DNA from: Cyclobacteriaceae bacterium
Lineage (GTDB): Bacteria > Bacteroidota > Bacteroidia > Cytophagales > Cyclobacteriaceae
Length of the DNA stretch: 64,000 nucleotides
NCBI GenBank assembly: GCA_965267415.1
Contig: OZ253955.1
Span: forward strand, 3,390,902-3,454,901
Direction of reading: 5' to 3'
The position numbers were made by a program, and so were the translations under genes. Shown here piece after piece: positions 23,498 to 60,329 of the stretch (the stretch's first letter is position 1; each line of letters starts with the position of its first letter). The notes under the pieces were generated by a model. That model ran no database searches and was not told the DNA's origin. It saw nothing but the letters and a program-made list of their open reading frames with translations.

Positions 23498-24781
23498 TCA
23501 GGGCTTAACGATAGCATCAAATCCTACATATTTCTGCAATACTTCCGGAATTCTTATTCGATCAGGCTCCTGGTTATTCTCGAGTATTGCTGCGATAATC
23601 CTTGGGAGCGCTAAGGCACTTCCATTAAGTGTATGAGCAAGTTCCTTGGTTCCGCCTTCTCTTTTGAGACGAAGTTTTAGCCGATTGGCCTGATAGGCTT
23701 CAAAGTTTGAAACAGAGCTTACCTCCAACCACTTTTCCTGAGCTGCCGAGAAAACCTCGAAATCATAAGTTAGGGCCGAAGTGAAACCCAAATCTCCTCC
23801 ACAAAGCCTCAGAATTCGGTAAGGAAGTTCTAATGACTTAACTAGTTGTTCAACGTGTGCGGTCATCTCATCTAATATCTTGTAGGAATCCTCCGGCTTT
23901 GCAATTTGAACTAACTCTACTTTATCGAATTGATGTAATCGATTAAGCCCTCTCACATGCGAACCCCATGAGCCAGCTTCTCTTCTAAAGCAGGGAGTGT
24001 GCCCCGTATTTTTTATAGGAAACTGATCTTCAGGGATAATTGAATCACGATAGATATTAGTGATCGGTACCTCGGCTGTAGGAATCAGGTACAAATTATT
24101 GGCTTCCATATGATACATCTGCCCCTCCTTATCAGGAAGTTGCCCGGTACCATAGCCCGATGTTTCATTGATTACTACTGGTGGGTGGATCTCATAGTAC
24201 CCTGAATCGACTGCTTCATCAAGAAAATAATTGATCATACCTCGAACAAGCCGTGCTCCCTGACCTTTATAGAATGGGAAGCCAGCCCCTGTCACTTTAT
24301 TTCCTAACTCAAAATCAATGATGTCATAATCCTCAATAAGTTCCCAATGAGGTTTTTTAGAAGCACTTAATGCCGGGACATTCTCATCATGGGTTTGGAC
24401 GACTTCATTATCCTCATCAGTATTTCCAGAGGGAACACTTTCATGCGGGATATTAGGAATATTATACAAAGAGGTCTCAAGTTCTTTCTCAACTACATTC
24501 TGAGATTCTTGGAGTTCCTTGCTCTTAGATTTTAACTCAGATGTCTCAGCTTTCAGCTTTTCAGCTTCTTCTTTTTTCCCCTGTTGGAAAAGGGCTCCGA
24601 TTTCCTTCGCGAGTTGATTGGATCTATGAAGAATAGCATCCAGTTCTTGTTGAATTTGTTTTCTTGAAGCATCTTTTTCCAGGACTTCTTTCAGTAATTC
24701 CTCAGGATTTTTGATCCCTCTTTTCTTTAGACCATTAGCACATCGGTCAAATTCTTTCTCAATAGTTGAGACCTGTAACAT
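23498..24781 (-). CDS. serS: Serine--tRNA ligase
   Basis: LIPTAEVP, FRREAGS, GLNRLHQFDKVE, HTLNGSALA. Confidence 0.98.
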   Translation of the reverse strand: MLQVSTIEKEFDRCANGLKKRGIKNPEELLKEVLEKDASRKQIQQELDAILHRSNQLAKEIGALFQQGKKEEAEKLKAETSELKSKSKELQESQNVVEKELETSLYNIPNIPHESVPSGNTDEDNEVVQTHDENVPALSASKKPHWELIEDYDIIDFELGNKVTGAGFPFYKGQGARLVRGMINYFLDEAVDSGYYEIHPPVVINETSGYGTGQLPDKEGQMYHMEANNLYLIPTAEVPITNIYRDSIIPEDQFPIKNTGHTPCFRREAGSWGSHVRGLNRLHQFDKVELVQIAKPEDSYKILDEMTAHVEQLVKSLELPYRILRLCGGDLGFTSALTYDFEVFSAAQEKWLEVSSVSNFEAYQANRLKLRLKREGGTKELAHTLNGSALALPRIIAAILENNQEPDRIRIPEVLQKYVGFDAIVKP

Positions 24782-53164: not shown

Positions 53165-54016
53165 TTATTCTTCCTTCTTCTCCTCTTCGGAGTTTTCAGC
53201 TTCTGCCTTAGGCTCTTCAGCAGGGGTTTCTTCCGCTGAAGGTTCCTCTGCTTTGGCTTCTTCAGCCGGAGTTTCTTCTGTTTTGGCTTCTACCTCGGGA
53301 GCTTCTTCAGCTTTTGTTTCCTCAGCTGGGGCTTCCTCGGTACTTGCTTCCTCAGCAGCTGGTTCTTGTGCCGGAGCCTCTTCTACAGCAGGTTCCTCTG
53401 ATGGAGTTTCCTCCGCTTTTGGCTCTTCTGCTGGAGCTTCAGCTTTTTCTTCAGTTGCTTCGGCTTGTGCCTCTTCTACAGCAGCTACATCTTCTGCCAC
53501 ATCTTCATCACCTTCGGCTCCACCTTCTTTGATCTCTTCTACCAAAGCAGCTTCAGCTTCTTGTGCTTTTTTCTTCAAGGCATCAGCTCGAGCTTCTTTG
53601 ACTTTGGATTCAGCTTCCATCTTGGCTTTCAGCTTTTCAGCTTTTTCTTTAGCCAATCGATCCACCTTGCCTTGGATCTTGGTTTCTTTATCCTTAATCC
53701 AGGCTTCCAATTTCTTATCTGCTTCCTCTTGCGAAAGCGCACCTTTCTGAACACCGATCTGCAAGTGCTTTCGGTACATCACTCCCCGGTAGGAGAGCAT
53801 TGCCCGAACGGTATCAGTAGGTTGTGCACCTTTCATTACCCATTCAAAGGCTTTGTCAGCGTCTAAATTGATTGAAGCAGGGTCTGTGTTGGGATTGTAG
53901 GTTCCGATCTTTTCAATAAAGCGACCATCTCGTGGTGCTCGTGAATCAGCCACAACAACATCGAACATGGCCAATTTTTTGCGTCCTCGACGCGCTAGTC
54001 TAATTTTTACCGACAT
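53165..54016 (-). CDS. rpsP: 30S ribosomal protein S16 with long acidic C-terminal extension
   Basis: VKIRLARRGRKK...DSRAPRDGRFIEKIGTYNP...GAQPTDTV; Glu/Ala/Pro-rich tail. Confidence 0.97.
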   Translation of the reverse strand: MSVKIRLARRGRKKLAMFDVVVADSRAPRDGRFIEKIGTYNPNTDPASINLDADKAFEWVMKGAQPTDTVRAMLSYRGVMYRKHLQIGVQKGALSQEEADKKLEAWIKDKETKIQGKVDRLAKEKAEKLKAKMEAESKVKEARADALKKKAQEAEAALVEEIKEGGAEGDEDVAEDVAAVEEAQAEATEEKAEAPAEEPKAEETPSEEPAVEEAPAQEPAAEEASTEEAPAEETKAEEAPEVEAKTEETPAEEAKAEEPSAEETPAEEPKAEAENSEEEKKEE

Positions 54017-54240: not shown

Positions 54241-56946
54241 ATGGACAAATATTCCTATATCGCCAATGCCCATGGCAACTACATCGATGAACTTTATAAG
54301 TCATACAAATCGGATCCGGAGAGTATAGACGAGACCTGGAAGAAATTTTTCGAAGGTTTTGAATTCGGACAGGACGGATATGGTGACGTTTCAATGGCAA
54401 CTCCAAAGGAGACTGCTGTTAGAAACCTGATCTATGCTTATCGTTCCTGGGCTCACCTGATTTCTGACACTAACCCGGTAAGGGCACGTCGCAAGCATTC
54501 TGTCAAGTTGGATCTGGGGGATTTTGGCTTGACAGAAGCGGATTTGAACACGGAATTCGAGATTGGAAGTGAGATTGGATTGGGTAAGGCAACACTCAAG
54601 AGTATCCTTGAAAAACTTAACAAGGTTTACAACGAGCACATTGGCTTTGAATACAGCCATATAAGAGATGCTGAGATACAGGAATGGTTCAAGCAAAAAT
54701 GTGAAACAGAGGGTGCTGACATTAGTCCATCCAAAGAAGAAAAGAATCAAATCCTTTCTAAACTCAACGAAGCGGTAGTCTTTGAGAACTTTCTTCACAC
54801 CAAGTTTCTTGGCCAAAAGCGATTTTCTCTCGAAGGTGGTGAAAACACGATCCCGGCACTGCATAAGATCATTCATCGTGCAGCAGAGTTGAATGCTGAG
54901 GAGATTGTGATTGGTATGGCACATCGGGGACGACTAAATGTCCTGGCTAATATTATGGGCAAAACCTATGAGGAGATCTTCAGTGAATTCGAAGGGAACA
55001 TGGAGGTTGATTTAACCATGGGTGATGGAGACGTAAAATATCACCTGGGGTATTCCTCTCATTTGGATACTGCCACTGGAAAGAAGGTCTATGTAAAACT
55101 AGCTCCCAACCCTTCTCACCTGGAAGCGGTGGATCCTGTAGTACTTGGATATACCAGGGCCCAGATTGATGATGAGTATAGAGGAGACATGTCCAAAGCT
55201 GTGCCAATCCTGATTCATGGAGATGCAGCCGCCGCTGGTCAGGGAATTGTATATGAGTGTGTTCAAATGTCCCTCCTCGACGGATACAAAACAGGAGGCA
55301 CTATTCATTTTGTCATTAACAACCAGGTCGGCTTTACGACAGACTTTGATGATGCGCGTTCAAGTATCTATTGTACGGATCTGGCTAAGATCATTGACGC
55401 ACCAATCCTTCACGTAAACGGCGATGATGCAGAAGCAGTAAATTTTGCAGCAAACCTGGCGATCGAGTATCGACAGAAATTTAATAAAGACATTTTCATT
55501 GACCTTTTATGTTATCGTCGGCATGGCCACAATGAAAGTGATGAACCGAAATTCACTCAGCCTAAGCTTTATAATGTGATTGCCAAGCATCCCAATCCCA
55601 GGGAAGTTTATGTAAAAAAATTGATCGAACGAGGTGATCTGGACGATGCGGCTGTAAAGACACTGGACAAAGAATTTAAAGCACAGTTACAGGATCGATT
55701 AAATGAGATCAAGCAACATCCGCTTCCTTATAAACCTCAAAAGATCGAAGAGGAATGGCATCACCTGAGAAGATCAGAAGCCAAGGATTTTGATGCTTCT
55801 CCAGATACCAGTATTTCGGAGCAAACAGTTGAAAAAGTTGGAAAAGCGATTACTGAGGTACCAAAAGGATTCAAGCCTCTGAAACAGATCGAAAAGTTGT
55901 TGAAAGATCGCAGTGCCAATTTCTTTGAAAAGAAGGAGTTGGGTTGGGCAGATGCTGAACTTTTGGCATACGGTTCTTTGCTGGAGGAAGGAAAGATTGT
56001 CCGGATGTCAGGTCAGGATGTAAAGCGAGGAACTTTTTCTCATCGCCATGCTTACTTGTTCGACTCCAACACGAATGAGCCTTATAGCGGCTTGAATCAC
56101 ATAACCAAAGATCAGGAACCCTTCAGGATATATAACTCGCTCCTTTCAGAGTACGGAGTGCTTGGGTTTGAGTACGGGTATGCAATGGCTACACCAAATG
56201 CATTGATCATTTGGGAAGCCCAGTTTGGTGATTTTGCGAATGGTGCTCAGGTTATGATAGATCAGTTCCTTATGAGTGCGGAGAGCAAGTGGCAAAGAAT
56301 GAACGGATTAGTGATGTTGCTACCTCATGGTTATGAGGGACAAGGTCCGGAGCACTCCAGTGCTCGACTGGAACGGTTCCTGCAGATGGCTGCAGGTGAA
56401 AATGTGATCATCGCCAACTTGACGACCTCTTCCAATATCTTCCATTTACTAAGGCGTCAGGTCTCATGGGAATTCAGGAAACCAGCGGTTGTTTTTTCTC
56501 CCAAGTCATTACTTCGACATCCTGGTGTTGTCTCTCCAATCAAAGATTTCACTAATGGCAAGTTCAAAGAAGTCATTGGCGATGGTTATGTGACAGCTAA
56601 GTCAGTCAAGAAAGTGCTATTCTGCTCAGGTAAAGTTTACTTCGACTTGCTTGAGGAGCAACAAAAAAGAAAAGCCAAGGACATAGCAGTGGTGCGAATA
56701 GAGCAGGTCTACCCATTTCCAAAGAAGCAGGTAGAAGCAATATTGAAGAAGTATGGGAATCCGAAATTGGTCTGGGTACAGGAAGAACCTGAGAATATGG
56801 GATCGTGGACCTTTATCCTGAGCAGAACCGGGTTAGATTTTTCAGTGGTAGCACGAAAAATAAGTGCTTCTCCTGCAACAGGGTTTGCCAAGGTGCATAA
56901 GGAAGAACAGGCTGATTTAGTAAAAAAAGCATTTGATCTAAAATAA
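54241..56946 (+). CDS. sucA: 2-oxoglutarate dehydrogenase E1
   Basis: GQKRFSLEG, GMAHRGRLN, NPSHLE, HGDAAAAGQG, WEAQFGDF, GQGPEHSS. Confidence 0.98.
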   Translation: MDKYSYIANAHGNYIDELYKSYKSDPESIDETWKKFFEGFEFGQDGYGDVSMATPKETAVRNLIYAYRSWAHLISDTNPVRARRKHSVKLDLGDFGLTEADLNTEFEIGSEIGLGKATLKSILEKLNKVYNEHIGFEYSHIRDAEIQEWFKQKCETEGADISPSKEEKNQILSKLNEAVVFENFLHTKFLGQKRFSLEGGENTIPALHKIIHRAAELNAEEIVIGMAHRGRLNVLANIMGKTYEEIFSEFEGNMEVDLTMGDGDVKYHLGYSSHLDTATGKKVYVKLAPNPSHLEAVDPVVLGYTRAQIDDEYRGDMSKAVPILIHGDAAAAGQGIVYECVQMSLLDGYKTGGTIHFVINNQVGFTTDFDDARSSIYCTDLAKIIDAPILHVNGDDAEAVNFAANLAIEYRQKFNKDIFIDLLCYRRHGHNESDEPKFTQPKLYNVIAKHPNPREVYVKKLIERGDLDDAAVKTLDKEFKAQLQDRLNEIKQHPLPYKPQKIEEEWHHLRRSEAKDFDASPDTSISEQTVEKVGKAITEVPKGFKPLKQIEKLLKDRSANFFEKKELGWADAELLAYGSLLEEGKIVRMSGQDVKRGTFSHRHAYLFDSNTNEPYSGLNHITKDQEPFRIYNSLLSEYGVLGFEYGYAMATPNALIIWEAQFGDFANGAQVMIDQFLMSAESKWQRMNGLVMLLPHGYEGQGPEHSSARLERFLQMAAGENVIIANLTTSSNIFHLLRRQVSWEFRKPAVVFSPKSLLRHPGVVSPIKDFTNGKFKEVIGDGYVTAKSVKKVLFCSGKVYFDLLEEQQKRKAKDIAVVRIEQVYPFPKKQVEAILKKYGNPKLVWVQEEPENMGSWTFILSRTGLDFSVVARKISASPATGFAKVHKEEQADLVKKAFDLK

Positions 56947-56963: not shown

Positions 56964-58511
56964 ATGAGTCTTGAAATGAAAGTACCCCCGGTAGGGGAGT
57001 CCATTACAGAAGTTACCGTGGCTTCATGGACAAAAAACGATGGTGATTTTGTGGAAATGGATGAGGTTTTGTGCGAGTTGGAATCAGATAAAGCGACCTT
57101 TGAAGTGACTGCAGAGGCAGCCGGAAAACTAACCATCAAAGCCCAGGAAGGAGACACACTGGAGATTGGTGCCGTACTCTGTGAAATTGATGAGAGTGCT
57201 TCCGGTGGTGAGCCTAAACCCACAGCTCAAGCAGAGCAACCAGCCGCTCCATCAAGTGCGGGAACTTCCGAACCCAAAGCGACAGGGGAAGTTCATGAAA
57301 TGAGAGTGCCCACGGTAGGTGAGTCCATTACTGAAGTCACACTTTCTACCTGGCAAAAAGCAGACGGTGACTTTGTAGAGTTAGATGAAAACATTGCTGA
57401 AATTGAATCTGACAAAGCGACTTTCGATCTCACAGCTGAGGCGCAAGGCATCTTGAAAATTGAGGCTCAGGAGGGTGATACATTAGAGATAGGAGCATTG
57501 ATCTGCAAAATTGAAGTGATGGAAGGGGCACCGACAAGTGCGGCTCCTGCCCCAGTTTCTTCATCAGCTCCTACCGCTGAGACTGCCCCGACAAGCTCTT
57601 CTCAAACGTATGCAACCGGTCATGCTTCTCCGGCAGCAGCAAAGATCCTGGATGAAAAGGGAATGGCAGCTTCAGAAGTCTCCGGAAGTGGGCGCGATGG
57701 AAGAATAACGAAGGAAGACGCAGTTCAGGCTCAGAAATCCGCACCAAAACAAGAGAGTGCAAAACCTTCCGCCCCTCAGTTCGAAGCTCCCGTGATAGGT
57801 GGTGGTGTTAGTCGAGAGCAGAAGCGTGAAAAAATGACTTCCTTAAGGAAGACCATCTCAAGGAGACTGGTGGCTGTGAAAAATGATACGGCTATGCTTA
57901 CTACTTTCAATGAAGTGAACATGGGGCCGATCATGAAACTGCGGAAGAAATACAAAGATCAGTTCAAGGAGAAATATGAGGTGGGATTAGGGTTTATGAG
58001 TTTCTTCACAAAAGCATGTTGTATGGCATTGCAAGAATGGCCAGCGGTGAATGGCCAGATCGATGGTGAAGAGCTAGTGTACAGTGATTATTGCGACGTA
58101 TCAATAGCTGTTTCAACGCCACGAGGGTTGGTAGTTCCAGTAATCCGGAATGCTGAATCATTGAATTTTGAGCAAATTGAAAAAGAAGTGGTTCGATTGG
58201 CGACCAAAGCACGCGATGGTAAACTAAGTATCCCGGAGATGGAGGGTGGTACATTCACTATCACAAATGGCGGAATATTTGGATCTATGATGTCAACACC
58301 TATCATCAATGCACCTCAATCAGCAATCTTGGGAATGCATAATATTGTTGAACGCCCTATGGTTGAAAATGGAGAGATTGTGATCCGACCAATGATGTAT
58401 GTGGCGCTATCTTATGATCATCGAATCATTGATGGGAGAGAATCTGTGAGTTTCCTTGTGCGAGTGAAACAATTGTTAGAAGATCCTACAAGGTTATTGA
58501 TTGGTATATAG
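56964..58511 (+). CDS. sucB: Dihydrolipoyllysine-residue succinyltransferase (E2) with two lipoyl domains
   Basis: Two ESDKA lipoyl motifs; GSGRDGRI; [10 protein letters not shown]. Confidence 0.97.
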
Positions 58512-58513
58512 TT

Positions 58514-58541
58514 AGTACAAAGTATTACGTACGAAGTATAA
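58514..58541 (+). repeat. Four tandem heptamers, left flank of the four-helix-bundle gene
   Basis: AGTACAA AGTATTA CGTACGA AGTATAA (consensus NGTAYNA). Confidence 0.8.
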
Positions 58542-58543
58542 AG

Positions 58544-58897
58544 ATGCATAGGTACAGGGAGTTGGATGTTTGGAAAAAAGCGATGGAACTTTCATTTACG
58601 ATATATGAGGCAACCAAAATGTTCCCGGATGAGGAAAAATTCGGATTAGTCTCACAGATGAGAAGAAGTTCAGTATCCATTGCTTCCAATATAGCGGAAG
58701 GTGCAGGAAGAAATTCTAATGGAGAGTTCAGGCAATTTCTGGGAATAGCTCAAGGTTCAACGTTTGAATTAGAAACTCAGACCCTACTTGCTTCAAGAAT
58801 GCACTTTATTGAAGAACGAGAAGTGAAATCAATCATCGAAGAAACAAATGCTATATCAAATATGATTTTCAAATTAAAAAAGAGTCTGATATCTTGA
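58544..58897 (+). CDS. Four helix bundle protein (23S rRNA intervening-sequence protein family)
   Basis: YRELDVWKKAM...FPDEEKFGLVSQMRRSSVSIASNIAEG...EFRQFLGIAQGS. Confidence 0.93.
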   Translation: MHRYRELDVWKKAMELSFTIYEATKMFPDEEKFGLVSQMRRSSVSIASNIAEGAGRNSNGEFRQFLGIAQGSTFELETQTLLASRMHFIEEREVKSIIEETNAISNMIFKLKKSLIS

Positions 58898-58922
58898 TAC
58901 TTGGTACCAAGTGCGTAATACC
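58895..58922 (-). repeat. Four tandem heptamers in inverted orientation, right flank
   Basis: Minus strand GGTATTA CGCACTT GGTACCA AGTATCA; includes a perfect palindrome ACTTGGTACCAAGT (58899-58912). Confidence 0.8.
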
Positions 58923-58934
58923 AAATAAAAAAAT

Positions 58935-60329
58935 ATGGATTATCAAGTAGTAGTAATAGGTTCTGGTCCTGGTGGCTATGTAGCAGCGATACGATGTGCG
59001 CAGCTCGGACTCAAAACAGCAATCATAGAAAAGTATGATACACTGGGAGGCACCTGTTTGAATGTTGGTTGTATTCCTTCGAAAGCATTACTGGATTCAT
59101 CTGAACATTTTCATGCTGCCGAGCATAATTTCAAAACTCACGGAATTGACATTACCAAACCGAAGGTCAATCTTGAGCAAATGATTTCCAGGAAGGCTGA
59201 TGTGGTCAAGCAAAATGTGGATGGCATTGCGTTCTTAATGAACAAGAATAAGATTGATGTATTTCATGGGATGGGGAGTTTCATTGATAAGAACACCATT
59301 CAAATAGATGGTAAGAAAAAAGAAACGATCACTGCGGAAAAGGTGATCATAGCTACCGGATCAAAACCAGCAAACCTTCCTTTCATTGAACTGGACAAAG
59401 AACGTGTGATCACGAGCACTGAAGCTCTGGAACTGAAGGAAGTACCAAAGCACATGATCATCATTGGAGGCGGTGTAATAGGTGTTGAATTGGGCTCTGT
59501 ATATGCTCGACTGGGAGCAAAAGTATCGGTAGTTGAATTCCTGGATAACCTGATCCCTACGATGGATTCTACCATGGGTAAAGAGCTTCAAAAGGTTTTA
59601 AAGAAGATCGGGTTCGAGCTTTACTTAGGACATAAAGTAACGGCGGTGGAGCGAAAAGGAAAGAACGTAACGATCAAAGCGGAGAATAAGAAAGGAGAGA
59701 ATGTTGAATTGAAAGGAGATTACTGCTTGGTTTCAATTGGTAGAAGGCCATATACAGATGGGCTTGGGTTAGACAAGGCAGGAGTGAAAATGGATGACCG
59801 TGGACGTGTCGAAGTAGATGAACATTTAAGAACGAATGTCGATAATATTTACGCGATCGGGGACGTGGTAAAAGGTGCCATGCTTGCTCATAAAGCTGAG
59901 GAGGAAGGCGTTTTTGTTGCTGAGACGATCGTTGGACAAAAACCTCATATTCACTACAAATTGATCCCGGGAGTTGTTTATACCTGGCCTGAGGTCGCTT
60001 CTGTTGGATATACGGAGGAAGAATTGAAGGAGCAGGGTAGAGCCTATAAGACCGGAAAGTTTCCATACAAGGCACTTGGAAGAGCACGAGCAAGTATGGA
60101 TACAGACGGTCTCGTGAAGATCCTCGCAGACAAAGCCACGGATGAAATACTTGGAGTTCACATCATAGGAGCAAGAGCTGCTGACATGATTGCTGCAGGT
60201 GTTACGGCAATGGAATTCAGAGCTTCGGCAGAGGATGTAGCCAGAATGTCACACGCTCACCCTACCTATATGGAAGCCTTTAAAGAGGCTGCACTGGCAG
60301 CTACTGAAAACCGGCCGATCCACATGTAA
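58935..60329 (+). CDS. lpdA: Dihydrolipoyl dehydrogenase (E3)
   Basis: IGSGPGGY, GGTCLNVGCIPSK, GGGVIG, MLAHKA, HAHPT. Confidence 0.98.
   Translation: MDYQVVVIGSGPGGYVAAIRCAQLGLKTAIIEKYDTLGGTCLNVGCIPSKALLDSSEHFHAAEHNFKTHGIDITKPKVNLEQMISRKADVVKQNVDGIAFLMNKNKIDVFHGMGSFIDKNTIQIDGKKKETITAEKVIIATGSKPANLPFIELDKERVITSTEALELKEVPKHMIIIGGGVIGVELGSVYARLGAKVSVVEFLDNLIPTMDSTMGKELQKVLKKIGFELYLGHKVTAVERKGKNVTIKAENKKGENVELKGDYCLVSIGRRPYTDGLGLDKAGVKMDDRGRVEVDEHLRTNVDNIYAIGDVVKGAMLAHKAEEEGVFVAETIVGQKPHIHYKLIPGVVYTWPEVASVGYTEEELKEQGRAYKTGKFPYKALGRARASMDTDGLVKILADKATDEILGVHIIGARAADMIAAGVTAMEFRASAEDVARMSHAHPTYMEAFKEAALAATENRPIHM

Follow-up and report, generated by a model that had tools for sequence, protein, structure and literature searches.

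The role of the intervening sequences (IVSs) that interrupt 23S rRNA has been an open question for more than 30 years, as has that of the short tandemly repeated repetitive (STRR) heptamers. The protein family PF05635 ("S23p") has two crystal structures and, to our knowledge, no known function. In Coxiella burnetii the 23S rRNA IVS is 428 nt long, carries GACAGAT heptamers, three or four in number, immediately upstream of the S23p start, and is closed by a 28-bp terminal stem that RNase III cleaves at the first repeat; the number of repeats differs among strains, and the S23p open reading frame (ORF) has deletions and substitutions and was judged by the authors to be expendable and probably not expressed (PMC4990558). 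The distribution of rRNA IVSs is described in the literature as sporadic and resembling horizontal gene transfer. The STRRs of cyanobacteria are tandem repeats of 7 bp that fold into hairpins between hupS and hupL, and for these a role in transcript stability or translational coupling was proposed (PMC2670836), and one report places an STRR insertion in the gene encoding RNase P RNA. In Avd, the accessory protein of diversity-generating retroelements (DGRs), all five protomers make contact with an RNA stem-loop, and flipped-out bases are inserted into the crevices that separate the protomers (bioRxiv 10.1101/2023.10.23.563531). Here we describe a 64,000-nt stretch of a Cyclobacteriaceae genome (contig OZ253955.1, positions 3,390,902 to 3,454,901; "the window") in which the spacer between sucB and lpdA holds a gene for a PF05635 four-helix-bundle protein between inverted arrays of heptamers. 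We conclude with high confidence that this is an ORF-bearing heptamer-repeat hairpin cassette, that it has the same build as the ORF-bearing 23S rRNA IVSs, and that it is co-transcribed with its host operon.

The cassette is ~410 nt long (58514 to 58922; the + strand is meant unless stated otherwise). It is preceded by sucB (56964 to 58511), which encodes the E2 dihydrolipoyl succinyltransferase (Pfam 2-oxoacid_dh, two Biotin_lipoyl domains, and E3_binding) and ends in a TAG stop at 58509 to 58511, and it is followed by lpdA (58935 to 60329), which encodes the E3 dihydrolipoyl dehydrogenase (Pfam Pyr_redox_2 and Pyr_redox_dim). The left (5') array (58514 to 58548) begins 2 nt past the sucB stop and consists of four NGTAYNA units, AGTACAA (58514 to 58520), AGTATTA (58521 to 58527), CGTACGA (58528 to 58534), and AGTATAA (58535 to 58541), and of a fifth unit in phase with them, AGATGCA (58542 to 58548), which contains the AUG of the cassette gene. 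This gene (58544 to 58897) encodes 117 amino acids, and its last two codons and UGA stop are spanned by the right (3') array (58888 to 58922), whose five inverted units are GATATCT (58888 to 58894), TGATACT (58895 to 58901, with the stop inside it), TGGTACC (58902 to 58908), the degenerate AAGTGCG (58909 to 58915), and TAATACC (58916 to 58922). The initial annotation had counted four heptamers on each side, which is right for the left flank if the unit with the AUG is set apart; the right flank has instead three good units, one poor one, and one more in the last codons. The right array ends 12 nt 5' of the lpdA AUG, and the intervening A-rich unpaired leader, AAATAAAAAAAT (58923 to 58934), has an A-rich counterpart in three orthologues (L001, L002, and L006; L numbers denote the other loci compared). 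The arrays are flush with all four gene boundaries, which favors the reading of the cassette that is proposed below.

The likeness to the 23S rRNA IVSs of C. burnetii and Leptospira, initially offered as an analogy, is closer than was claimed. Both elements encode a PF05635 protein, are of comparable length, and are bounded by inverted repeats whose pairing would loop out the ORF, with heptamers, variable in number, directly 5' of its start. The low GC content of the cassette (36.7%, or 33% at third codon positions, versus 46.3% for sucB and 44.2% for lpdA) also echoes that of the Coxiella IVS (36% versus 42.5%). In contrast to the IVSs, the host transcript here is a protein-coding operon rather than rRNA, and the ORF is kept intact, whereas Coxiella S23p is degraded; post-transcriptional excision by RNase III without religation, as in rRNA IVSs, is a prediction here. 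On the + strand, neither a promoter-like site, nor a Bacteroidota-type TAnnTTTG motif, nor an intrinsic terminator was found in or around the cassette, and the ORF lacks a Shine-Dalgarno (SD) sequence of its own. With no promoter or terminator of its own, the cassette must be transcribed with the operon, which is a further point in favor of our reading.

The window holds only one PF05635 gene, and the tandem motif GTAYNNNGTAY occurs in the cassette and nowhere else in the 64 kb. A scan of the window's spacers that excluded the cassette's own flanks found none that reached a 7-period score of 7. Tandem Repeats Finder (TRF) reports one other short repeat of period 7/8 in the window (TCAGCTT, 24546 to 24567, 3 copies); at default-like scoring it does not flag the imperfect arrays of the cassette. 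Searches of the window region and 11 loci against Rfam gave no family match, rRNA included, but only a spurious match to a plant microRNA hairpin, and 0 families of the PADLOC defence-system models were matched. In L042, a long hairpin just 3' of the cassette (2850 to 2973) resembles the Rfam plant MIR859 precursor at 42 bits, a sub-gathering and spurious score that nevertheless illustrates the length to which these repeat hairpins can extend.

The cassette protein matches Pfam PF05635 (23S_rRNA_IVP; E = 1.8e-39, 134.6 bits against a cutoff of 33.8), NCBIfam TIGR02436 "four helix bundle protein" (125 bits against 24), and NF008911 (141 bits against 137). The family is very large, with >5,000 relatives scored in one search, and the best-named relatives of this member are from Ekhidna and Cyclobacteriaceae. 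Its AlphaFold (AF2) model has four helices (pLDDT 96.7) and superimposes on XCC0516 (2GSC) with a TM-score of 0.95 and on BT_0352 (2RLD) with one of 0.83. Both of these structures contain five chains, and XCC0516 is cited in PMC4990558 as having been published as a homopentameric toroid; from these chains and the literature, the window protein is inferred to be a homopentamer too. The R-x3-S-x3-N-x2-E motif reported as conserved in the PF05635 family (PMC3936711) is present, with R41, S45, N49, and E52 invariant among 28 relatives. The kinship with Avd that was noted initially is borne out at the level of structure, with TM-scores of 0.77 to 0.80 between the model and the DGR protein (bAvd, PDB 4DWL / 8UB7). 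Avd and the window protein share the four-helix-bundle fold, the solved relatives are pentamers, and Avd grips an RNA stem-loop. In contrast, the Avd profile NF033474 gives only 18.3 bits against a cutoff of 80, and a reverse transcriptase, template repeat, and variable repeat are all absent near the cassette.

As RNA, the two arrays pair as the initial annotation had described. Positions 58529 to 58546 match 58890 to 58907 at 16 of 18 positions (15 Watson-Crick pairs and 1 G-U pair, with 2 mismatches), and beyond a 7-nt bulge, the length of one heptamer, 58522 to 58528 pair with 58915 to 58921 at 7 of 7 positions. These segments bound the 5' arm (58522 to 58546) and the 3' arm (58890 to 58921) of a long-range stem, for which folding and inverted-repeat analysis allow two registers. 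The second register joins 58522 to 58532 with 58911 to 58921 through 10 Watson-Crick pairs and 1 G-U pair, and it is the register present in the minimum-free-energy and centroid folds. The 14-bp palindrome within the right array, ACTTGGTACCAAGT (58899 to 58912, on neither strand in particular), is perfect and could form a competing local hairpin. The flank-flank duplex has a free energy of -31.1 kcal/mol, compared with -21.3 +/- 3.7 for shuffled sequences (z = -2.6; 1 of 60 shuffles is as good), and the fold of the whole 446-nt region is not unusual relative to shuffles (z = -0.56). At this single locus, the stem exceeds chance only modestly. These two values are what can be said for the explanation that the pattern is chance, or a low-complexity AT-rich spacer around an ordinary small gene, to which we give practically no credence because it is already refuted by recurrence.

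Recurrence was assessed in 80 further genome loci (45 to 73% protein identity) from Bacteroidota, Balneolaceae, Ignavibacteriae, a Desulfobia metagenome-assembled genome (MAG), and an acidobacterial MAG. Among 83 loci, 7 was the best-fitting period for 74 left flanks and 58 right flanks, compared with 15 of 162 control segments, and the median z of the duplex between the two flanks of a relative was -2.6; both results favor our reading. About 90% of the 83 relatives show the pattern, which extends to other phyla and is unique in the 64-kb window. It is because of this recurrence in relatives, and not because of single-locus statistics, that the stem evidence carries weight. The flanks of the family were to be checked for paired arrays, their lack in relatives being the outcome that would have spoken against the initial annotation; they prove to be a family-wide trait, and paired heptamer flanks are a hallmark of the four-helix-bundle family across phyla.

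The repeat period is 7, rarely 8, across phyla and GC contents, with 3 to 5 units in a typical array, and in nearly all members the arrays lie flush against the start and stop of the ORF. The units themselves are cassette specific (GTAYNNN, TAGANNT, GAGATNT, AAGACAC, GTTTCAA, and CGTGAAT) and, when phased on a common AG, have the consensus A-G-W-W-N-T-D, a class to which the left-array units of the window belong. In all of the orthologues at sucB|lpdA (63 to 76% protein identity), the left array is of the GTAY type and the right one of the RTAC type, but actual sequences and copy numbers differ. Every one of the 81 loci that have both neighbors has them co-oriented, with a median gap of ~40 nt that is barely above the length of an array, a further observation in favor of our reading. 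A period-7 score of at least 6 was also reached by 48 of 140 "control" spacers, a count that includes the flanks of second cassettes.

Two other properties of the arrays were considered and rejected as explanations or tests. Of 45 left arrays, 22 have stop codons in every frame, versus 9.6 expected; a TAG, TGA, or TAA lies in each form of the unit part T[T/G/A]AG, and a period of 7 shifts the frame from unit to unit. As a reason for period 7, however, this property does not hold for all arrays and is in part a consequence of the period. Left arrays of the same 45 loci are also C poor (mean G, 0.22; mean C, 0.07). A G-rich-first polarity of the arms cannot serve to test orientation, since an inverted repeat reads alike on both strands.

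The cassettes recur at several junctions, namely fadB|thiolase (34 loci), sucB|lpdA (14 loci), and thiolase|acyl-CoA dehydrogenase (10 to 11 loci), and also at hisH|hisA, at the junction of the methylmalonyl-CoA mutase subunit pair, and at paaI|thiolase. Thirteen loci (L010, L014, L019, L029, L031, L036, L045, L046, L057, L064, L067, L076, and L080) have two cassettes in one fad operon, in the order fadB, four-helix-bundle gene, thiolase, four-helix-bundle gene, acyl-CoA dehydrogenase, and the paralogues are 32 to 58% identical. In the nine of these loci in which both sets of flanks are readable, the heptamer units differ between the two cassettes. A cassette's own arms pair at -24.4 kcal/mol, compared with -13.2 kcal/mol for arms crossed between the two cassettes of an operon, which supports our reading.

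Similar arrays also occur without a gene. Inverted heptamer-array hairpins with a short loop are present at three junctions of the his operon of Wenyingzhuangia (L026, 1806 to 1879, 3617 to 3683, and 4439 to 4520) and at a thiolase|acyl-CoA dehydrogenase junction (L027, 4069 to 4165), and gene-less arrays with longer spacers were found in L042 (1061 to 1218), L053 (4076 to 4197), L061 (4082 to 4268), L071 (4158 to 4319), and L075 (4111 to 4230). Each gene-less hairpin in the his and fad operons has its own unit type. These hairpins are the Bacteroidota counterparts of the cyanobacterial STRRs, which likewise consist of tandem heptanucleotides that form an intercistronic hairpin. STRRs differ from the window cassette in phylum and units and in forming multicopy, genome-wide families, compared with one locus in 64 kb here; moreover, the STRR literature cited above does not link them to a protein, whereas here the loop of the hairpin carries a four-helix-bundle gene. 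There is also a likeness to repetitive extragenic palindromes with their associated tyrosine transposases (REP/RAYT, REPIN) and to miniature inverted-repeat transposable elements (MITEs), in which a small gene lies between inverted repeats and ORF-less derivatives and remnants lie in spacers. Unlike these, the cassette encodes no Y1 transposase or other catalytic fold, its repeats are tandem heptamer arrays rather than a single palindrome, and the ORF-less hairpins share no sequence family.

Counterparts of the same build were also found well outside the Bacteroidota, which favors our reading. In Xanthomonas campestris (L177, 2930 to 3375), the orthologue of the crystallized structural-genomics protein XCC0516 (2GSC) lies between accB and accC with GGGAATC x4 upstream and an inverted array that abuts the accC AUG. 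Copies on cyanobacterial plasmids at cmr2|cmr3 (L184) and at parA|parB have inverted arrays. 23S_rRNA_IVP genes have been reported in cas loci in the literature, and this "association" could be one of intercistronic insertion. On plasmids alpha and gamma of Nostoc sp. PCC 7120 (L180 and L181), identical four-helix-bundle proteins (WP_010994075.1) are encoded beside transposase genes, of the ISL3 family on gamma. High-GC viral contigs contain cassettes with units such as GGGAGTA, TAGGCTG, and GGGCTTG; in three of them (L167, L169, and L173), the final heptamer runs into an SD-like AGGAG that precedes the AUG. A collection of cultured phages gave no match.

The history of the sucB|lpdA site was surveyed in metagenome loci anchored on LpdA. 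All close relatives of the window (L001 to L006, L016, L086, and L090) carry the cassette at this junction, and among the LpdA-anchored loci the gene is intact in L086, L090, and L121. Two loci, L103 (291-nt spacer) and L124 (241-nt spacer), contain internally deleted four-helix-bundle pseudogenes that keep both arrays and resemble the deletion derivatives of MITEs. Solo arrays of 33 to 42 nt, mostly of the right-arm type, are found throughout a marine clade (L098, L102, L104, L106, L107, L111, and L146) and also in L109 and L097; in L097, a left and a right array look as if they had been joined at a GTAC core. Clean spacers, some with an ordinary hairpin, are present in L087, L088, L094 to L096, L099, L100, L110, and L114 to L117. 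That sucB-lpdA needs no insert, as was stated at the outset, is confirmed by gene-less spacers of 29 to 116 nt in relatives whose LpdA is ~80% identical. In the LpdA tree, the clade that comprises the window and its closest relatives is occupied throughout, and occupied and empty loci are interleaved further out; the empty sites sought among sister strains therefore exist in more distant relatives and not in close ones.

Synonymous sites (dS) are saturated in every comparison of orthologues, and nonsynonymous divergence (dN) is 0.12 to 0.41 for the four-helix-bundle protein versus ~0.02 to 0.03 for SucB and LpdA in the same pairs. An intact ORF despite saturated dS and this dN indicates that the ORF is old, fast evolving, and still kept intact, which favors our reading. 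We conclude with high confidence that the cassette has been inherited vertically in the Ekhidna-like clade. This conservation at the site, which the initial annotation had named as evidence against its suggestion of a mobile unit, holds for all close relatives, though with dS saturated. Similarly, no target-site duplication is visible at 58512 to 58513 or from 58923 onward, where the empty sites of relatives are too diverged to define the boundaries; no transposase is present; and near-identical copies at different sites are absent among 185 loci. Because of these three results, the unit appears not to have been recently mobile at sucB|lpdA, and "mobile" may be at most a historical description. 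The combination of 96 to 98% identity in SucB/LpdA with 52 to 79% identity in the four-helix-bundle protein was considered as proof of mobility by cassette swapping and was rejected, since with dS saturated, fast evolution explains it equally well.

These data bear on a rival explanation, namely that the cassette is a DNA-level mobile element whose arrays are terminal or subterminal repeats comparable to multi-site transposon ends, whose protein binds DNA as an accessory factor to mark or synapse these ends, and for which host enzymes supply catalysis; the RNA stem would then be a by-product that makes insertions tolerable. Consistent with this are the patchy occupancy of sucB|lpdA, the deleted remnants with both arrays, the solo arrays, the occurrence of related cassettes at many different junctions, and the identical copies on two Nostoc plasmids beside transposases. 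The best cross-site pairs, which are 72 to 74% identical proteins with one unit type at three different sites in Sphingobacteriales, point in the same direction, as do the GC content of the cassette, which is below that of its neighbors, the sporadic distribution reported for rRNA IVSs, and a complementarity of the arms that is strand symmetric, without a G-U signature. Nevertheless, we regard this explanation as unlikely. It is opposed by the lack of a catalytic domain, of a visible target-site duplication, and of near-identical copies at different sites, and by the synteny of the cassette across a clade with saturated dS. In addition, gene-less hairpins at neighboring junctions each have their own unit, unlike dispersed MITE/REP families, and all 81 cassettes sit in tight, co-oriented intercistronic gaps.

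The reading that we prefer, although tentatively and with slightly less than an even chance of being right, is that the cassette is an mRNA-borne repeat hairpin of the IVS/STRR type whose arms gate translation and processing and are probably the ligand of the protein. In the operon mRNA, the inverted arrays would pair in any of several registers, so as to form an imperfect duplex of ~22 to 25 bp, with the entire ORF in the loop and its AUG and UGA sequestered. Because the left arm starts 2 nt past the sucB stop, ribosomes finishing sucB would melt it, and the promoter-less, SD-less ORF would thereby be translated. Ribosomes finishing the ORF would in turn melt the right arm beside the A-rich lpdA leader, so that the insert would preserve translational coupling. 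The closed duplex is, by analogy with the Coxiella IVS, a candidate substrate for RNase III, cleavage by which would separate the E1/E2 message from the E3 message. The pentamer may recognize the repeats at about one unit to each protomer or crevice, and the protein could in this way feed back on its own translation or processing.

A precedent for such recognition is provided by TRAP and HutP (NAG-N4 repeats), oligomeric RNA-binding attenuation proteins that read spaced triplets. The consensus A-G-W-W-N-T-D likewise offers one NAG triplet per 7 nt, in 3 to 5 units, to a ring oligomer. The folds are unrelated, however; the second array is the complement of the first and could not be read in the same way in sense RNA; and binding is hypothetical here.

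Several observations weigh against this reading, in addition to the ordinary fold of the whole region. Locus-specific compensatory base-pair covariation, which the initial annotation expected of the paired arrays, was not found. Among eight orthologues of the GTAY type, the arms of one locus pair with each other no more strongly than with those of another locus (-24.3 versus -22.8 kcal/mol), and when the order of the units in the right arm is permuted, complementarity hardly falls (mean z = +0.52; for the window, p = 0.66). Mismatches between the arms comprise 50 of the sense G-U type, 80 of the A-C type, and 200 transversions, with no excess of G-U. The permutation, arm-swap, and G-U tests give no positive signal of RNA structure. 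Specificity of pairing is seen only between unit types, and these results argue for selection on the unit motif and the inverted arrangement, not on individual base pairs. Because a tandem-repeat stem can pair in any register, a functional stem is compatible with them. The window protein, with a net charge of 0 and a pI of 6.75 (family median, +1), is not basic, unlike the positively charged Avd. Finally, some counterparts depart from the plan. In the three viral contigs named above, the cassette is antisense to both neighbors, so expression by read-through is not general. The cyanobacterial plasmid cassette at cas6|cas4 (L183) has 15 and 10 heptamers in direct orientation, and the flanking arrays of Nostoc L180/L181 are mutually noncomplementary; given the arrays of L183 and L181, the stem is not universal. 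Genes that adjoin the antisense viral cassettes encode a terminase large subunit, a tail tube protein, and a GDSL lipase.

Some of these results favor another rival explanation, in which the cassette is a passive hitchhiker, its arrays being products of replication slippage and arm-to-arm gene conversion, its hairpin serving to make the insert harmless, and its protein having a role unrelated to the repeats. The absence of covariation and the nonbasic protein fit this explanation, and so do the variation in repeat number among orthologues and Coxiella strains, the expansion of arrays to 10 to 15 copies (L034 and L183), and the 23S_rRNA_IVP genes reported in cas loci. We nevertheless consider it improbable. 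Slippage alone would not fix a period of 7 across phyla, GC contents, and unrelated units. In nearly all members the arrays abut the start and stop of the ORF. The unit type is cassette specific even inside one operon, and the ORF is kept intact, with its four invariant motif residues.

A broader proposal, which goes beyond the preferred mRNA-hairpin reading and is possible but on balance doubtful, is that PF05635 pentamers read 7-nt repeats sequence specifically, each paralogue being matched to its own arrays, and that all of these elements belong to one ancient class of autonomous elements whose ORF-less derivatives are common intercistronic hairpins. If this is true, ORF-bearing rRNA IVSs, cyanobacterial STRRs, and the cassettes of Bacteroidota, Xanthomonas, and phages would all fall into a single class. 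Its members would inhabit the transcripts of core operons (sucB|lpdA, accB|accC, fadB|fadA|fadE, hisH|hisA, cmr2|cmr3, and parA|parB) and would there modulate processing, stability, or the translational coupling of one subunit gene to the next. The shared build suggests a single explanation for the puzzles posed by PF05635, the rRNA IVSs, and the STRRs, and the protein's own heptamer array is a concrete candidate ligand and the first testable clue to the target of the family. For annotation, it would mean a class of inserts within core metabolic operons that may alter the stoichiometry of subunits. In the searchable library, we found no paper that connects PF05635 genes with STRR-like arrays or reports such a cassette outside rRNA; the family-wide architecture is previously unconnected, the kinds already known being the rRNA IVS and STRR hairpins.

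The neighbors of the cassette are sucA, sucB, lpdA, a thioredoxin-like gene, and a histidine kinase gene. The first gene of the operon, sucA (54241 to 56946), encodes the E1 component of 2-oxoglutarate dehydrogenase (Pfam E1_dh, Transket_pyr, and OxoGdeHyase_C). On the sucA side, a ribosomal protein S16 gene (53165 to 54016, - strand) has a C-terminal tail of ~170 amino acids that is rich in E, A, and K and contains 30-nt tandem repeats (TRF, 53228 to 53316). At the lpdA start, contigs from all four metagenome runs in which the window occurs break on a 34-nt unitig (58930 to 58963). Its depth is 60 to 100, compared with 9 to 21 on either side, which suggests that co-occurring relatives share only that stretch.

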